Shown here one piece after another: positions 31,172 through 53,642 of a DNA stretch of 64,000 nt. The stretch lies in the sequence record PX645697.1; one strand, given 5' to 3'. The notes beneath the pieces were generated by a model. It saw only the letters and a list, made by a program, of their open reading frames with translations. It was not told the DNA's origin and made no database searches. Both the position numbers and the translations under genes were made by a program. Each line of letters opens with the position of its first letter. The first letter of the stretch is position 1. The stretch is from a phage.

Positions 31172-31855
31172 TTAACTCTCCAAAGTTTTCTTCAGAGCTG
31201 CCCACGAGATTGGGTAGATCTTAGCCATCTCTTCGTCTACGGATTTAGCAAACACTCGAACTTCATATTGAGCGTGAGATGAGAGTCGCTGACGACACAG
31301 CTCAAACCAGCCATACAAAGAACCAGTCCACACCCACTCAGTGATCATCCCCTGAGGAAGAACAAATCGAGCTTGCTCTGGTGCAATAAATTCAATCAAC
31401 TTGTCATATGCTGCTAGAGAATCTTCATATGCATCGTTAATCAGCATTAATGCTTCATCTCGCTCTCCGTCGATGAGTTGAATCCCTGAACCTGCATGGA
31501 GGTCCGCAGGTCTCGCAAAAATCTCTTTAGGGATGAAGACTTCAACTGCTCCATCTTTATACCGCCGGGACATTTCGTTCCACGAGAATCCAACCTGATG
31601 CTTGCCCAACTGTCTCGCAATTGCGATAGGTGCTTTGCATCGGAAACTGACTTGTGGGTGTCGGAATGGAGTAACATGCTTCTCTCTTGCGAGGAAATTG
31701 ATGAGACGTTCATCACGTTCATTTAAATCACCTTCACGGGTTACACCAAAGGAAACTCGAGCTGCGTTTACTACAGTTTTATCCGAGCCTAAAAACTCTA
31801 CCAGTTCTGCTTTAAGCTGATCATTCATTACTTTTTCTCTCCATCCATGAAGCAA
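31172..31855 (-). CDS. thyX: flavin-dependent thymidylate synthase (ThyX)
   Basis: ThyX-type motif ARVSFG...FRHPQVSF...QRLSSHAQYEVR. Confidence 0.7.
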   Translation of the reverse strand: MLHGWREKVMNDQLKAELVEFLGSDKTVVNAARVSFGVTREGDLNERDERLINFLAREKHVTPFRHPQVSFRCKAPIAIARQLGKHQVGFSWNEMSRRYKDGAVEVFIPKEIFARPADLHAGSGIQLIDGERDEALMLINDAYEDSLAAYDKLIEFIAPEQARFVLPQGMITEWVWTGSLYGWFELCRQRLSSHAQYEVRVFAKSVDEEMAKIYPISWAALKKTLES

Positions 31856-32273
31856 GTTTTCTAACTTCCTCTATCGTTATATCACTTTTTAACCTATTTA
31901 CTCTTCTTGACAAAAAGGTCACATTCCCTTGAACGTACCCTTTGTCTGGAATAAATCTGTCAAGCTCAGCTAAGTCATCAGAACCTTTTTCACCATCTAT
32001 CTTTATAGGCGTATCTAATACCGGACAGAATCCAGTCCAAATAGACTCTAGATACTCAGGAGTTAAATCAAAAGGTACGTTATCCCTTTTTGCTTTTATT
32101 TTAGTTCTGACATTCTTTAATTTAAAAGGTTGTGTCCTTTTATATTTTAGATATCTAGCTCTTTGACTTTCGTTGGCGCAAGAATAACAATAAGGCCGTA
32201 ACCTACCAGACCTATCATTACGCACAGGAAATTGATCTATGTCCAAATCCTTTTCACAGGAATTACAGATCAT
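31821..32273 (-). CDS. zinc-finger protein, possibly degenerate HNH-like nuclease
   Basis: N-terminal CNSC...CYSC; C-terminal IPDKGYVQGNVTFLSRRVNRLK. Confidence 0.3.
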   Translation of the reverse strand: MICNSCEKDLDIDQFPVRNDRSGRLRPYCYSCANESQRARYLKYKRTQPFKLKNVRTKIKAKRDNVPFDLTPEYLESIWTGFCPVLDTPIKIDGEKGSDDLAELDRFIPDKGYVQGNVTFLSRRVNRLKSDITIEEVRKLASWMERKSNE

Positions 32274-32338
32274 CGATCGCTTCCCATAGCTTCGATTAAT
32301 GTTGCTTGTAATTGTTCATTCATCCGTGAATTTCCCTA

Positions 32339-32539
32339 TTAATATTCTTTTACACAATAAACCACTAAGGTTCCTTGATCTGTTAATATTGACTTATGTA
32401 AGCTGACATTACTATAAAACTTTGGAGCTATCTTAAGGGCTTTCTTAAAACGACGAGCTTCTTTACGAGTAGCAAAGTGCTCTGTTACAGGAACTTTGTC
32501 GTTGTGTAGATAGTAAACTACTGTCCAATATTTTTTCAT
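32339..32539 (-). CDS. small protein, member of KEARR-KK paralog family
   Basis: MKKYW...TRKEARRFKK shared with four ORFs at 34.4-35.5 kb. Confidence 0.4.
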   Translation of the reverse strand: MKKYWTVVYYLHNDKVPVTEHFATRKEARRFKKALKIAPKFYSNVSLHKSILTDQGTLVVYCVKEY

Positions 32540-32814
32540 AATTTAATACCCAAAGCAGTTACTAAGAAAGCTTTCAGGTTTGCTTCGGTCTGCATACCAG
32601 ATAAGCTATAATGTGCATCGCTGTTACGATTAGGCACAACGAAAGCAGGGATACTTCGTACACCATACTTAACAGCTTGTTCACGACCATCACCTTCAAG
32701 GATGTTAATCTCTTCTACTTCTACATCAAACTCCTTAACAACCTTCTCAAAGGTAGGAGCCATTGCTTTACATGGAGCACACTGATCACTATAAAACTTA
32801 ATTACTTTACTCAT
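32536..32814 (-). CDS. thioredoxin/glutaredoxin-like protein
   Basis: CAPC active-site motif in thioredoxin-fold context (KFYSDQCAPCKAMAP...IPAFVV); start trimmed to ATG 32814. Confidence 0.55.
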   Translation of the reverse strand: MSKVIKFYSDQCAPCKAMAPTFEKVVKEFDVEVEEINILEGDGREQAVKYGVRSIPAFVVPNRNSDAHYSLSGMQTEANLKAFLVTALGIKL

Positions 32815-33004
32815 TCTATTCCTTGTTAATAAACAGGTTGATATGACGCTGGGTAGCAGGAACAACAATAAAAGATTTATACTGACCTTTTGCTAGGTCA
32901 TGAGCAATCTTCTTTGTCTGACCAAGACCCATCACACAGCCACTAACGATAATGGCATGTGCTTGTAATTCTTCAGGTAGGTTTAGTTTCACTCTTTGGA
33001 TTCC

Positions 33005-33190
33005 TTATAGCATACAAAGAATAATAACAAGAGGTAGTGTTATAGCAAAATGTACCAGAACAACACTACCTAGCTTGATAGCTTTAACATCCTCTTCTGC
33101 TGGGTTTTCTTTAATTGCTAAATTTCGAGCTTTATATATAACAGTACCAACTATTAACGACCACACGGCCCACACAATCAGTGAAATCAT
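33005..33190 (-). CDS. small two-TM membrane protein
   Basis: Track ORF; MISLIVWAVWSLIVGTVIY... paralogous to the adjacent untracked ORF. Confidence 0.45.
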   Translation of the reverse strand: MISLIVWAVWSLIVGTVIYKARNLAIKENPAEEDVKAIKLGSVVLVHFAITLPLVIILCML

Positions 33191-33199
33191 ATCAAATCC

Positions 33200-33379
33200 T
33201 TATGCAGTCAGGAGGTGAAGCAGGAATGGGATAACAACAGCTACGATAACCATGATAGTTGATGCTGTTTGAATCTCACCTTTCTTATCAGGGGTTTCTT
33301 CAATAAGCTTACCAGAAGCCCAATAAATACCACCACCAATAAAGATAGCCCAAATACCCCATACGATTGCTGATAACAT
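33200..33379 (-). CDS. small two-TM membrane protein, 59 aa (not in track), paralog of 33005..33190
   Basis: Hand translation MLSAIVWGIWAIFIGGGIYWASGKLIEETPDKKGEIQTASTIMVIVAVVIPFLLHLLTA. Confidence 0.45.
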   Translation of the reverse strand: MLSAIVWGIWAIFIGGGIYWASGKLIEETPDKKGEIQTASTIMVIVAVVIPFLLHLLTA

Positions 33380-33440
33380 ATATCTATATCCTTATAAATA
33401 AGTTCGCCCCACCTCGGGTTAGGAGACAGGGCGGAGGTTT

Positions 33441-34040
33441 TTAGTAAGACACATCACCACTTGAGTGGGACATGTTGCTCTTGACAAAGTAGCAATACTT
33501 GCCAAGACCTTCATTAATTTCTTGAAGCATACTCTGATCAACTGGATAAGTGACTAAATCACCATCAAACTCATCCATCTTCTCAATAATACACAACAAG
33601 GTCATGCACATATCAGAGAGCATTCCATCCATGTCTAGATCAGCATTACCCTCTGAGAACCAAGCATGAGAGAGGTAGTTAGCTGCTGTAGCGTCCACTT
33701 TAACACAGTGGTAACGCATACGTTCAGCAATACGATCTCCTACCTGTCGTGCGTAATCTTCCAGCTCGTCAAACATACCATGAACACCCTGAAATCCTGC
33801 ACCAGAGACGTTCCAGTGGTAGTTTTTAGCTTTAATATGCAAGAGTTCCATGTTAGCTTGTAAGCAGCTTAGGATGTGTTCTAGGTTGTTTCCGCTAATC
33901 ATGCCCTGCATAGTTTCAAGGCGAGAGATTGAAAGCTCAGATCGGTCTAACATGTTATATTCTGCACGACCGATTTCAGGTAAATCAAAGACATTCTTAT
34001 GCATTTGGGTTATCTCCATCAAGTTCAACTGAATTAGCAA
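33441..34040 (-). CDS. Dps-like / ferritin-like protein
   Basis: KNYHWNVSGAGFQGVHGMFDE...DRIAERMRY matches the Dps ferroxidase-region pattern HWN..G..F..VH.M.D....AER. Confidence 0.5.
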   Translation of the reverse strand: MLIQLNLMEITQMHKNVFDLPEIGRAEYNMLDRSELSISRLETMQGMISGNNLEHILSCLQANMELLHIKAKNYHWNVSGAGFQGVHGMFDELEDYARQVGDRIAERMRYHCVKVDATAANYLSHAWFSEGNADLDMDGMLSDMCMTLLCIIEKMDEFDGDLVTYPVDQSMLQEINEGLGKYCYFVKSNMSHSSGDVSY

Positions 34041-34326
34041 CGTTACGTTCGATGTTTGCCATCACTTGCTGCGTTATGACAATGCAGTTCTGTGGGTCAA
34101 CTGATTTAGAACGCCCCATTTCAGGGTCATACACTTTAACTCGCTTAGCAGTTGAACCTGTAACCTGAAGAACCTTCAACAGATATCCCTGATTACCAAT
34201 AGACCATGCAACAACATCACGATTCTTGATGAATCGACCAAGCATATCACGATGATAGAACTGCTGCATAACCTTTGATTTATTAATCTCTTCGGCTGGC
34301 GGAGCCACTTTACTCAAATCTAACAT
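33997..34326 (-). CDS. hypothetical protein
   Basis: Track ORF; AAATGTATA variant motif 35 nt upstream. Confidence 0.3.
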   Translation of the reverse strand: MLDLSKVAPPAEEINKSKVMQQFYHRDMLGRFIKNRDVVAWSIGNQGYLLKVLQVTGSTAKRVKVYDPEMGRSKSVDPQNCIVITQQVMANIERNVANSVELDGDNPNA

Positions 34327-34364
34327 TTCACTCTCTCCTGTTTAACACAATATTCTTATACTGT

Positions 34365-34373
34365 ATATACATT
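34365..34373 (-). promoter_or_regulatory. AAATGTATA variant of the recurrent motif
   Basis: One mismatch to TAATGTATA, 35-40 nt upstream of ATG 34326. Confidence 0.3.
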
Positions 34374-34398
34374 TGAGAGTGATCATATCTACTACCAA

Positions 34399-34608
34399 TC
34401 AGTAGTAAATTACTTTAGACATAAAAGAACCAGTGTTAGGGTCTTCATACCAGCGATGTATGTCAGCGCTTTTTACTATTGTGCCCAGAGTCTTCAACTG
34501 TTTCTTAGCAATACGAGCCTCTTTGCGAGTGTCAAACAATTTGATGCTATCTTTTCTCATATGTTGCTCAAGATCCCAAACAACATGAATAGCCCACATC
34601 TTTTTCAT
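34399..34608 (-). CDS. small protein, KEARR-KK paralog family
   Basis: MKKMW...TRKEARIAKK...VIYY. Confidence 0.45.
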   Translation of the reverse strand: MKKMWAIHVVWDLEQHMRKDSIKLFDTRKEARIAKKQLKTLGTIVKSADIHRWYEDPNTGSFMSKVIYY

Positions 34609-34823
34609 TAGTAATGTACCTTTCCGCTGATATAAATACGGCCTGAGGTATACTCATAGCCCTTGAGAATCTTAATAGAGATAAGATATCCAGTGTGTAA
34701 TTCACTGAACGATTTCTTAAGCCTACGTGCATCTTCTCGTGTTTTCTGGTAGGCCATGGTCACCCCCCCACTTGTCCACTCTGTCTTAACTAACCAAATT
34801 CTTTTCATAAGACCTGCCCTCAT
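34608..34823 (-). CDS. small protein, KEARR-KK paralog family
   Basis: ...TREDARRLKK...KVHY. Confidence 0.45.
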   Translation of the reverse strand: MRAGLMKRIWLVKTEWTSGGVTMAYQKTREDARRLKKSFSELHTGYLISIKILKGYEYTSGRIYISGKVHY

Positions 34824-35035
34824 TAGTAGTACACCTTGCTTCCAGCCATGAACGCCCCTGTCGAGCTTATCATGGCTTTGCTGATAGTAACTTTCTTACA
34901 CCGTAAACATACCTTCCAGTTCTTTTTACAGATTCGAGCTTCTTGTCGAGTGTTACAAAAAATAGCCGAAGATATTTCTTGGGTGTTGTTATCATAAACA
35001 CGAACACACCACTTTTTCATTGTTCCAAACTCCAC
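34823..35035 (-). CDS. small protein, KEARR-KK paralog family
   Basis: ...TRQEARICKK...KVYY. Confidence 0.45.
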   Translation of the reverse strand: MEFGTMKKWCVRVYDNNTQEISSAIFCNTRQEARICKKNWKVCLRCKKVTISKAMISSTGAFMAGSKVYY

Positions 35036-35226
35036 TATCTGTCAACCGATTCAGGGACAAACTGCATTACACAGACCTGATTACGAGGAAGGTTTATTTC
35101 ACAAGCGGTTTTTCTATCAGCAACCTTAGATGACGAGTTAGGGCCAATTTGAGCCATCATTAATCCCATAGCTAACATGCCGAGGATTACACCAATTGCT
35201 AGAGATGCTACAGTTTCTTGTTTCAT
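35035..35226 (-). CDS. small membrane protein
   Basis: Hydrophobic segment ASLAIGVILGMLAMGLMMAQI. Confidence 0.35.
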   Translation of the reverse strand: MKQETVASLAIGVILGMLAMGLMMAQIGPNSSSKVADRKTACEINLPRNQVCVMQFVPESVDR

Positions 35227-35241
35227 ATCGGATACACTCTA

Positions 35242-35490
35242 TCAGTAATATATCTTTTCATTGATAACCAAAGTGTCGTAATTCTCTGTCTGAGAGTGGA
35301 CCGCTTTGTGAATAGTAGCTACTACATCAACAGCATCTTTAAAGCGTCGATAATGGTTTATGGTTACTTTTTTGAGACGTCTAGCCTCCTCTCTTGAGGG
35401 AAGCTGAGTTTTTAGAACAGTGATTTTACCTGTTGAAATCTTGGTAATCACAACTTTCAGTGCCCAACAATCCAGAGCAGCCTTTTTCAT
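35242..35490 (-). CDS. small protein, KEARR-KK paralog family
   Basis: ...SREEARRLKK...KIYY. Confidence 0.45.
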   Translation of the reverse strand: MKKAALDCWALKVVITKISTGKITVLKTQLPSREEARRLKKVTINHYRRFKDAVDVVATIHKAVHSQTENYDTLVINEKIYY

Positions 35491-35693
35491 TTTACTAAAC
35501 CCTTCATGTAGTCATAAAGATCATTAGAAGCTTTACCCCATTCAAGGTGCTTCTTATCCATATAACTCTTACAAGCTTCTTTACTGCTTTCATCACAAGT
35601 ATCAAATCGATGACATGCTCGACCAAATGTCATAGCTTTTAATTGAACCTCGGTAGTCAAACCTTTCAGTTCTTGGAACTCTTCTTCAGTCAT
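35487..35693 (-). CDS. hypothetical protein
   Basis: Track ORF. Confidence 0.35.
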   Translation of the reverse strand: MTEEEFQELKGLTTEVQLKAMTFGRACHRFDTCDESSKEACKSYMDKKHLEWGKASNDLYDYMKGLVK

Positions 35694-36227
35694 TTACACA
35701 CCTTTAGATGCAACTACACCTTCAGAGTTATTATAACGACCCTTCACTGCATAGGAATGTTCCCCTGCATGAGAGTGCTCAAACATCACCATCTGACCAA
35801 CACGCATACCAGCACGAACTCGTAAGCTATGATGCTTGGTTACGTTATGGAACTCAAATGTCAGCTTACTGCTGTTAAACCCTGCGTCTGCCCACCCGGC
35901 GTGGAGGTGGTTCAAACCACAACGAGCCATAGATGAACGTAGGACAAACAGACTTGAGATGTTATCTGGAAGATTAAACTCCTCCATGGAGTGAGCCAAG
36001 AAGAACTGACCCGGAGTGATAACCAAACCCTCTTCAGGAATCTTTACTTCCTTCCACTGAAGATTCTCTTTCGCATCAATATCAACGATGCCATCAGCCT
36101 GTTCTTCAACAAGGATAGTATCACCAATACGGATATCCACACTAGCAGCGTTAACATATTTATGCTCCGCATTCAGATAGCCATTGTCAATTACATCGTG
36201 CAGTTCAATACTTCCTAGTAAACTCAT
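35694..36227 (-). CDS. dcd: dCTP deaminase / dUTPase-family protein
   Basis: VDIRIGD...PGQFFLAHSMEEFNLPDN...LRSSMARCGL...AGWADAGF pattern of Dcd family. Confidence 0.65.
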   Translation of the reverse strand: MSLLGSIELHDVIDNGYLNAEHKYVNAASVDIRIGDTILVEEQADGIVDIDAKENLQWKEVKIPEEGLVITPGQFFLAHSMEEFNLPDNISSLFVLRSSMARCGLNHLHAGWADAGFNSSKLTFEFHNVTKHHSLRVRAGMRVGQMVMFEHSHAGEHSYAVKGRYNNSEGVVASKGV

Positions 36228-36236
36228 TCTTATTCC

Positions 36237-37583
36237 TTAGTTATTTGTTTCTACGTCAAAAGAGATTCCACGACCCGCCTCATCGGCAAACCGAACTGTA
36301 CGGGTTTGAGGTTCTAATATTTCAGGGTTGTCAGCAACAAAGCGATCAGCGAGATTCTGGTTGACGGTCTCAGCAAGCTCCTCATGAGAAGGAACATCAA
36401 GACTACCTACCACATCTTGGGAAGAAGCTTCATCAGTCCAGATAACCCGAGCAGGAACAGCAAAACCCTGACCAGAGAGCTGACGTGCACTAACGTTGAA
36501 GCCATTTGGACGACCACGAGAAGGACTAGACATCCATCTCTCCATAGAATCACTTGTGATACCAAGAGCTTCTTCAAAAGATGTTCTACGAGTAGGGCTT
36601 TCTCTTCGTGACTCTTGTGCTCGACGCATTGCAGGGGCTACAAACACCCCTTCAATTGCATTGTGTCGGTTAGGTTCCTCTTCTCGACCAAGCAGATCAC
36701 CACCCGTGTTAGTCGTTAAATTTGTCAACCCCTCAGACCAATACGCATGAATCTGACCAGAACCGTGAAGACTAGACATAATCTGAATCTCTTCATAAGG
36801 GATTCCAAAGAATAGACTCATGTCTCGGTTAACACAATACTGAGCACTTGTTGTATCTTCAATAAGAGAAACCTGACCTAATCCATTAACCAGATGGCTA
36901 ACTGGCTGAGGTGTAGGAAGGTATCGAGTTTGGGCCATATATTGATATGCAACAGATGGAGCTGAGAATCTTAACACTTGTGAATTAGGCCACTTTTTGT
37001 GAACGTATCTGATTTCACGACTAGAAACAACCACAGGACAAGGAGAGGTCATAGCTAAATATCCATGAGGGGTCATGAATAAGTTATCAAGAGTCATCGC
37101 ACCACGGCACATCATAGGAAAATTATCCAACACCTCCTCAATAGAAGTAGGATAGTTAAACATGAATTGAATGCGGGTTCCATTCCACTGAAATTCAATA
37201 ATATCAGTGAATGTTAATTGAGAGTTCCCAGCATAGGATTCGTTTGTAGATTCAGCAAGAAGAGATGAATATTCAATATCTTGTGACTCAAGCCACTCCT
37301 TAACGTTGCTTTCAACCTCTCTTCCAAGATCTTGCCACTGATCATGGCGGACGAAAGTGTTTTGGGTTCTTGGTGTTTGTCCTCTGACAATAAAGATATC
37401 AATGTCATGTGGAGCTATATTGTTAAGGACAGCATCACGAATAGCCCCACCAGTAATGATGGGACAGATACCGTCTGGAATCAAGTTGTTGTTAATCAAC
37501 TGTTCAATGAAGTGACGACCAACAGTGATATCAGGTTGTTGAGCAACCTTATCTTCAATTTGGTTAATCGGGATAACAATCAT
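36237..37583 (-). CDS. Pol-beta-superfamily nucleotidyltransferase (CCA-adding / poly(A)-polymerase-like head) with low-complexity C-terminus
   Basis: ITGGAIRDAVLNNIAPHDIDIFIV matches the GG-x-RD...DxD head motif; start set at ATG 37583 just after exonuclease stop. Confidence 0.4.
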   Translation of the reverse strand: MIVIPINQIEDKVAQQPDITVGRHFIEQLINNNLIPDGICPIITGGAIRDAVLNNIAPHDIDIFIVRGQTPRTQNTFVRHDQWQDLGREVESNVKEWLESQDIEYSSLLAESTNESYAGNSQLTFTDIIEFQWNGTRIQFMFNYPTSIEEVLDNFPMMCRGAMTLDNLFMTPHGYLAMTSPCPVVVSSREIRYVHKKWPNSQVLRFSAPSVAYQYMAQTRYLPTPQPVSHLVNGLGQVSLIEDTTSAQYCVNRDMSLFFGIPYEEIQIMSSLHGSGQIHAYWSEGLTNLTTNTGGDLLGREEEPNRHNAIEGVFVAPAMRRAQESRRESPTRRTSFEEALGITSDSMERWMSSPSRGRPNGFNVSARQLSGQGFAVPARVIWTDEASSQDVVGSLDVPSHEELAETVNQNLADRFVADNPEILEPQTRTVRFADEAGRGISFDVETNN

Positions 37584-53543: not shown

Positions 53544-53642
53544 CTCTCATTCAATTTGGCGCACCGTGGAGGATTCTAACCTCCAACCAATTTCTTAGAA
53601 GGAAACTGCTCTATACAATTGAGCTAACGGCGCTGGATTTGT

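Follow-up and report, generated by a model that had tools for sequence, protein, structure and literature searches.

The closest described counterparts of the genes considered here are gp69, gp70 and gp71 of phage phiEco32, which lie between the dCTP deaminase gene (gp72) and gp68 of that phage, together with their orthologs in Kuravirus, Nieuwekanaalvirus and Suseptimavirus phages, which belong to the same family and share its position and order. All fall within PHROG 4939, an independently built phage profile to which no function is assigned; a search of the literature on phi32_69/70/71 or phrog_4939 returned nothing, and the SU10 paper makes no mention of these genes. phiEco32-like phages are common therapy candidates, and their subfamily, Gordonclarkvirinae, is reported to be remarkably resistant to restriction-modification and to most of the defence systems tried, no inhibitor, modification pathway or other countermeasure being known that would account for this (PMC11990801). 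Here we analysed five small open reading frames (ORFs), termed A to E, in the phage sequence record PX645697.1, the whole 64,000-nucleotide (nt) stretch being referred to as the window. Megablast of positions 32000-36300 returned 99 phage records, nearly all of them Escherichia/Shigella podophages (Kuravirus, Nieuwekanaalvirus, Suseptimavirus) and none covering more than 81% of the query, which identifies the window as a phiEco32-like podophage of the Gordonclarkvirinae infecting E. coli. Compared with other isolates that carry PHROG 4939, the window is distinguished by having five copies of the family, including the rare copy D.

A five-member family of small proteins

All five ORFs lie on the minus strand, a point that the preliminary description of this DNA had omitted. 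Paralogs A (34399..34608; 69 amino acids (aa)), B (34608..34823; 71 aa from an ATG at 34823 or 66 aa from an ATG at 34808) and C (34823..35020; 65 aa) are the orthologs of gp69, gp70 and gp71, respectively, and A is the last gene before a promoter of the P68 type. Paralog D (35242..35490; 82 aa) is the most divergent copy, while paralog E (32339..32539; 66 aa) occupies a second site, flanked by the thioredoxin gene on one side and the HNH/ThyX genes on the other. The coordinates given earlier for A, B, D and E stand. For C, a mechanical ORF call extends to a GTG at 35035, whereas the start is most likely the ATG at 35020, which has a GGAG 11-14 nt upstream and yields the 65 aa of the annotated orthologs. 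Orthologs of B have been annotated with the equivalents of either start.

The core motif on which the family was first proposed is present exactly as quoted: TRKEARIAKK in A, TREDARRLKK in B, TRQEARICKK in C, SREEARRLKK in D and TRKEARRFKK in E. When expressed as the pattern [TS]R.[ED]AR..KK, it matched five times in a six-frame translation of the window, once per ORF, and not at all in 200 shuffles. An aromatic pair at the C terminus had also been attributed to every copy; the endings VIYY, KVHY, KVYY and KIYY are as described, but E ends in KEY. The N-terminal sequences, characterised earlier as MKK-x-W-like, were likewise quoted correctly. Pairwise BLASTP and phmmer comparisons among the five proteins are modest (expectation value (E) 1e-6 to ~0.1, 26-41% identity), yet mutually consistent. 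Profile comparison also upheld the significance of the motif, in that all five proteins match PHROG 4939 (A, 1.7e-28; B, 1.3e-20; C, 1.1e-25; D, 6.3e-5; E, 9.6e-22), with coverage of positions 1-67 or 5-67 of the 67 in the profile, as do 52 of 52 homologs tested. A hidden Markov model (HMM) built from the family recovered just these five ORFs in the window, D with an E of 1.5e-15. Judged by shared motif and profile, A to E thus form a genuine paralogous family, catalogued so far only as PHROG 4939 or as 'hypothetical protein'.

The tight spacing reported for the array applies to C, B and A, whose C-B and B-A junctions are both TAATG, a stop/start overlap of 1 nt. The array is interrupted between C and D, where a 63-aa predicted membrane ORF (35035..35226, minus strand; phrog_7508, E 2.3e-28) is inserted that is unrelated to the paralogs and has no match to their family. 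The start codon of D lies in an ATGA overlap with the stop codon of a 68-aa ORF, and that of E in an ATGA overlap of 4 nt with the stop codon of the thioredoxin gene. Overlaps of 1 or 4 nt between stop and start codons are typical of translational coupling, so that co-translation is suggested for these genes.

Distribution, age and rate of evolution

In 5.8 billion proteins, a word-seeded search recovered 48 matches with a first alignment and 76 with a second, all of 64-82 aa except for one of 87 aa. Named matches were each a 'hypothetical protein' of a Kuravirus-like phage; those on long contigs lay on contigs of phage size (76-87 kilobases (kb)), and most others on short metagenome fragments. 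When 1.84 billion cluster representatives were scanned exhaustively with HMMER, no more than 35 clusters matched, all of 65-81 aa. Together, the small number of clusters and the phage-sized contigs indicate that the family is narrow and restricted to the lineage of phiEco32-like phages. Within this lineage, none of the Gordonclarkvirinae relatives examined was without a copy, and the A clade was found in 11 of 11 isolates compared.

By HMM scan, the five copies of the window exceed those of every other isolate compared, which have between two and four: four each in KBNP1711, MN05, WFI101126, 172-1 and EK010, three each in phiEco32, EP335, ECBP2 and IMEP8, and two in SU7. In the isolates, two to four copies lie at the first site, between the dCTP deaminase gene (dcd) and P68, and up to two (0-2) at the second, between thioredoxin and ThyX. 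Three distant metagenomic contigs of phiEco32-like phages, from Logan, also have abutting copies at the first site, next to a Pfam DCD match: five in L013 (7762-8912), three in L015 (7565-8237) and one in L016 (7989-8219). This brings the range at that site to 1-5 copies over 10 isolates and these three contigs. Otherwise the contigs have the same gene order around the array as the isolates, with L016 having additional anaerobic ribonucleotide reductase genes. Paralog D was found in a single record out of 50,697 phage records (TH42, 96%).

In a neighbour-joining tree, A, B, C and E form separate clades, each with positional orthologs from several genera, and D falls together with two copies from metagenomes, on long branches. 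The order C-B-A is kept across genera, although Suseptimavirus phages are without the C clade. Because clades and synteny extend across genera and to distant metagenomic contigs, the paralogs are not a recent amplification; on this evidence they are ancient and positionally stable. The preliminary description had called the family locally amplified, which does not agree with ortholog clades that span genera or with the arrays that distant metagenomic relatives have at the same site.

Its second epithet, diversifying, is supported in so far as the genes diverge fast. Over comparisons of the window with ten phages, aa identity ranged from 42-100% for A, 43-78% for B, 38-98% for C and, where present, 31-79% for E, as against 92-100% for dCTP deaminase, 89-98% for the gp68 homolog and 78-94% for ThyX. 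The ratio of non-synonymous to synonymous substitution rates (dN/dS, by the Nei-Gojobori method) was 0.25-0.43 for A, B, C and E and 0.05-0.12 for dcd, the gp68 homolog, Dps, thioredoxin and ThyX; paralog divergence is 5-8 times that of neighbours, and copy number varies as well. A dN/dS pattern of this kind is that of purifying selection with much weaker constraint, or of episodic diversification. Since an unrelated small ORF nearby, orf59, has a similarly raised dN/dS of 0.38, fast evolution is not unique to the paralog family. Alleles are mosaic: the MN05 copy of A is 100% identical to that of the window but its copy of C only 50%, whereas in KBNP1711 both are at least 97% identical. Variation within clades is concentrated in columns 11-20 and 35-45 of the alignment, which correspond to the tip of a β1-β2 hairpin and to the C terminus of a helix with the loop that follows.

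Predicted fold, expression phase and candidate functions

AlphaFold2 was run with family alignments for A and D. The model of A has a mean predicted local distance difference test score (pLDDT) of 84 and a predicted template-modelling score (pTM) of 0.67, with β1 at residues 2-11, β2 at 20-25, a helix at 28-40, β3 at 45-56 and β4 at 60-63. The model of D (pLDDT 93.4, pTM 0.79) has β1 at 6-17, β2 at 23-30, a helix at 33-48, β3 at 54-67 and β4 at 72-76. The two models thus share a β-β-α-β-β order and predict a single domain, a two-layer α+β sandwich. Foldseek against the PDB returned nothing below an E of 0.14. BFVD yielded nothing but members of the family and weak matches in related phages; at E ≤ 0.001, the matching proteins, all uncharacterised, came from three phages of the Gordonclarkvirinae (TM 0.77-0.85) and from Salmonella phage SE131 (TM 0.72). 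Judged from the models, the fold is generic, and no characterised homolog is identifiable from it.

A conservation profile was calculated in the 67-position numbering of the family HMM from ~40 effective sequences. Conservation is highest at W5 (100%), T25 (96%), R26 (100%), A29 (93%), R30 (100%), K33 (92%), K/R34 (87%), K/R50 (93%) and Y67 (100%), and falls to 59% at K37; R26, R30, K33 and K34 correspond to R28, R32, K35 and K36 of paralog A. W5 sits in β1 and K/R50 in β3, and the final residue is Tyr in 116 of the 121 homologs collected. We read T25-x-x-E28 as a helix capping box. Helix positions 29, 32, 36 and 39 are hydrophobic and presumably face the sheet, which on a helical wheel would leave R26, R30, K33, K34 and K37 as a contiguous exposed stripe of Arg/Lys along one side of the helix. 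From the topology, one end of the domain would hold both the variable segments and the C-terminal Tyr. All 121 homologs are strongly basic, with isoelectric points (pI) of 9.47-11.10 and net charges of +5 to +12, as compared with a pI of 5.5-9.4 for unrelated small ORFs in the neighbourhood.

The array lies in a long minus-strand block with replication and nucleotide-metabolism genes; GC skew changes sign at ~18 kb. The 72-nt gap that follows A (34327-34398) hardly differs among 10 isolates and the three metagenomic contigs and carries, at 34366..34374 on the minus strand, the element AAATGTATA, found by pattern search, which marks the downstream boundary of the array. This element is the counterpart of the core of the phiEco32 middle promoter P68, consensus tAATGTAtA. 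The gap also has a near-invariant upstream block, TGGTAGTAGATAT, while the genes upstream of the gap are highly variable. In phiEco32, P68 is one of six promoters with this consensus that are used by the phage sigma factor gp36, and its use as a gp36-dependent middle promoter is experimental (PMC4331800; PMC12276001). According to secondary accounts of a phiEco32 macroarray, early genes lie at the far right of the genome and middle genes comprise the replication block, including the homolog of the regulator gp79 (PMC9965538; PMC8948821; for Kuraviruses, PMC9965538). From the position of the array inside the replication block and directly upstream of P68, we infer that the paralogs are co-expressed with replication genes in the middle phase. 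Scans for σ70 promoters and terminators around the array gave results at shuffle level only.

Taking these features together, we tentatively favour the idea that the paralogs are binders of a polyanion, most likely nucleic acid, and that they carry variable loops. The positive ridge is the only surface feature common to all paralogs and phages, which argues for a shared polyanionic ligand, and the replication-module context makes nucleic acid the most economical guess for that ligand. The conserved basic helix would then be a common docking surface, most probably for DNA or RNA, while the fast-evolving tip of the β1-β2 hairpin and the loop from the helix to β3 would make each paralog specific for a target or partner of its own. 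The proteins might act as co-produced accessory nucleic-acid-binding factors during the replication phase, modulating or shielding phage or host nucleic acid, with copy number and alleles tuned to the host. Several points weigh against this. Nucleic-acid binding rests on inference, the exposure of the stripe was derived from sequence periodicity, and the timing of expression was deduced from gene position and secondary descriptions; an acidic protein could just as well be the ligand of a basic surface; and fast evolution, mosaic alleles, and gain and loss of copies are marks of arms-race proteins.

These marks belong to a second explanation, in essence that of the preliminary description, which we regard as somewhat less probable and in which the paralogs are inhibitors of host proteins, used in anti-defence or host takeover, each of which binds and blocks a different host factor or variant of a defence system through its variable loops while the conserved basic helix provides a scaffold or an anchor on an acidic patch. 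It would account for a dN/dS 5-8 times that of flanking genes, for variable segments that cluster in loops, for alleles of A that are 97-100% identical where those of C are ~50% (MN05 and phiEco32), for a copy number that ranges from 1 to 5 and for the near-absence of D from phage records, and it would suit a subfamily that is reported to resist most defence systems tried on it. T4 Dmd antitoxin and inhibitors of the AcrIIC3 type, which are small α+β proteins, are likewise phage-encoded, fast-evolving and restricted to lineages, although, unlike these, the present family is uniformly very basic. However, the sequence and fold searches recovered no specific relation of the paralogs to known anti-defence proteins, and their genes are in the replication/middle block, away from the early host-takeover genes at the far right. 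The presence of one or more copies at a fixed position in every relative examined is more core-like than would be expected of accessory anti-defence cargo, the equally fast evolution of orf59 means that the rate is not specific to the family, and an invariant, exposed basic stripe favours one shared ligand over many targets.

As a shield for nucleic acid would satisfy both readings, polyanion binding and inhibition are not exclusive. A more speculative extension, to which we give little credence, is that the paralogs account for the otherwise unexplained ability of Gordonclarkvirinae to withstand restriction-modification and the majority of defence systems tried on them. Small basic proteins produced together with the replication machinery might cover or label the DNA or RNA of the phage, or titrate nucleic-acid-sensing defence proteins, with the different paralogs and their hypervariable loops matched to different host nucleases or sensors.

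It is improbable, in our assessment, that the proteins are subunits of a homo- or hetero-oligomer, such as sheet-to-sheet dimers or a small ring, made in fixed ratios through translational coupling and contributing to replication or nucleotide metabolism as a structural or chaperone-like component. The overlapping stop and start codons in C-B-A, thioredoxin-E and orf68-D do suggest stoichiometric co-production, the order C-B-A is conserved across genera, and, in the models, a four-stranded sheet under one helix would leave an open face of a kind that commonly serves for dimerisation. Nevertheless, copy number runs from one (L016) to five (L013 and the window) and Suseptimavirus phages do without the C clade, which leaves no fixed set of subunits, and alleles of A, B and C are inherited independently, which is unexpected for tightly co-adapted partners; with copy number not fixed and alleles assorting independently, an obligate hetero-oligomer in particular is unlikely. 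A reading of the ORFs as duplicates in decay or without function, or as no genes at all, might be suggested by their small size, high divergence and lack of a known domain, but it is excluded for practical purposes by purifying selection (dN/dS well below 1 in every clade) and deep conservation of length, invariant residues and position in distant relatives, alongside confident fold predictions and the presence of ribosome-binding sites or coupling overlaps.

Comparison with characterised proteins did not supply a relative, in keeping with the earlier statement that no known domain is recognisable: searches of Pfam, NCBIfam, PADLOC and the PDB were negative, leaving PHROG 4939 as the sole match. 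Specifically, Pfam and NCBIfam scans of 40-52 members gave no recurrent match, PADLOC models gave two single-member matches at E ~0.01, neither recurrent, and the best E in sequence-profile searches of the PDB with two alignments was 0.97. Small nucleic-acid binders such as HU/IHF-like phage proteins and proteins of the Sso7d/Cren7 type resemble the paralogs in size (7-9 kDa), pI (~10), conserved Arg/Lys and aromatic residues and long β-hairpins, but no sequence or fold match to them was recovered. Neither HU nor the SH3-like binders have the β-β-α-β-β topology. Among structural neighbours, PsaD ranked first, but the match is not significant (Foldseek E 0.14, 10-19% identity) and the biology is unrelated. 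PsaD, itself basic, holds the acidic ferredoxin by electrostatic attraction, and it serves here purely to illustrate that such a surface can bind protein instead of nucleic acid.

Other candidates were rejected. DNA-mimic anti-restriction or anti-defence proteins of the Ocr or ArdA type have a strongly acidic surface, whereas 121 of 121 homologs have a basic pI (9.5-11.1), and there is no Pfam or PDB match to them; DUF2188 (PF09954), considered like the RNase H1 hybrid-binding domain for a resemblance of the type W-x-V ... F-x-T-x-x-E-A, had no match in a Pfam scan of 40 members; in the same number of members, the likeness to the RNase H1 hybrid-binding domain came down to one protein against Cauli_VI (PF01693), whose E of 0.15 is well short of the threshold; and a likeness to ribosomal protein bS21, suggested by ALRRFKR, had an hhalign probability of 0.3% over 10 columns, with an approximate E. 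coli bS21 query. Cronobacter phage GAP52 gp065, flagged by Foldseek, had an HMM E of 0.03 and an hhalign probability of 12% over the N-terminal half only. It is a single-copy gene at a different locus, had no match in PHROG or Pfam, and is unproven as a remote relative.

Tandem, fast-evolving small accessory proteins are familiar in phages, while this family itself is without a characterised relative. It is one of few multi-copy gene sets in phiEco32-like phages, and offers a confident fold model with obvious residues to mutate. An engineered K-12 strain serves as host for BASEL phages Bas86-91, so that genes can be deleted and complemented. If nucleic-acid binding is correct, the family would add a new small fold to those of phage nucleic-acid binders; if its members block host defence, the published puzzle of resistance would be explained; and if they are the resistance factor itself, they would represent a new anti-defence class that works by polyanion shielding instead of DNA mimicry. 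Should neither binding nor defence blocking apply, they would be one further fast-evolving ORFan family.

Neighbouring genes

The array is anchored on its upstream side by the dCTP deaminase gene (35694..36227, minus strand; identified by ortholog annotation), which is conserved at this position in every relative examined. Between it and D lies a 68-aa acidic ORF (35487..35693, minus strand; pI 5.6; phrog_2347, E 3.5e-32), unrelated to the paralogs and found in 4 of the 10 phages compared; the 63-aa membrane ORF was found only in KBNP1711 and ECBP2 among the same ten. The interval 35035-35693, comprising the 68-aa ORF, D and the membrane ORF, is a cassette zone, each element being present in some phages only, and it joins elements found separately in genomes of the MN05 and KBNP1711 types.

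On the other side of dcd, a minus-strand nucleotidyltransferase gene (36237-37583) has a weak match to the PolyA_pol head domain (E 0.0017). Its identity between phages is bimodal, at 80-86% or 31-33%, whereas that of the adjacent dcd is at least 92%, which suggests allelic replacement. The BASEL paper speculates that the pair formed by the nucleotidyltransferase and dcd genes could underlie DNA modification.

Near paralog E, a 150-aa ORF (31821-32273, minus strand) lies between ThyX and E and overlaps the upstream end of the mechanical ThyX ORF (to 31855). It has no Pfam match and no homolog in the 10 loci compared; at this spot, SU7 and EP335 have annotated HNH endonucleases, and the ORF is likely a mobile homing-endonuclease insertion. 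Between the two paralog sites lies a second tandem pair of small paralogs, of 61 and 59 aa (33005-33190 and 33200-33379, minus strand; 33% identity, E 2e-10). This pair (33005-33379) varies between phages, and its products have the look of proteins with two transmembrane helices; the 59-aa member is the orf59 whose dN/dS is raised (0.38). The Dps/ferritin-like gene (33441-34004, minus strand; Pfam Ferritin, E 2.8e-7), annotated as Dps-family in phiEco32, is conserved throughout the relatives, those from metagenomes included. Elsewhere, the sole tRNA of the window, which is also its sole Rfam match, is a tRNA-Arg with anticodon TCT at 53557-53633 on the minus strand.

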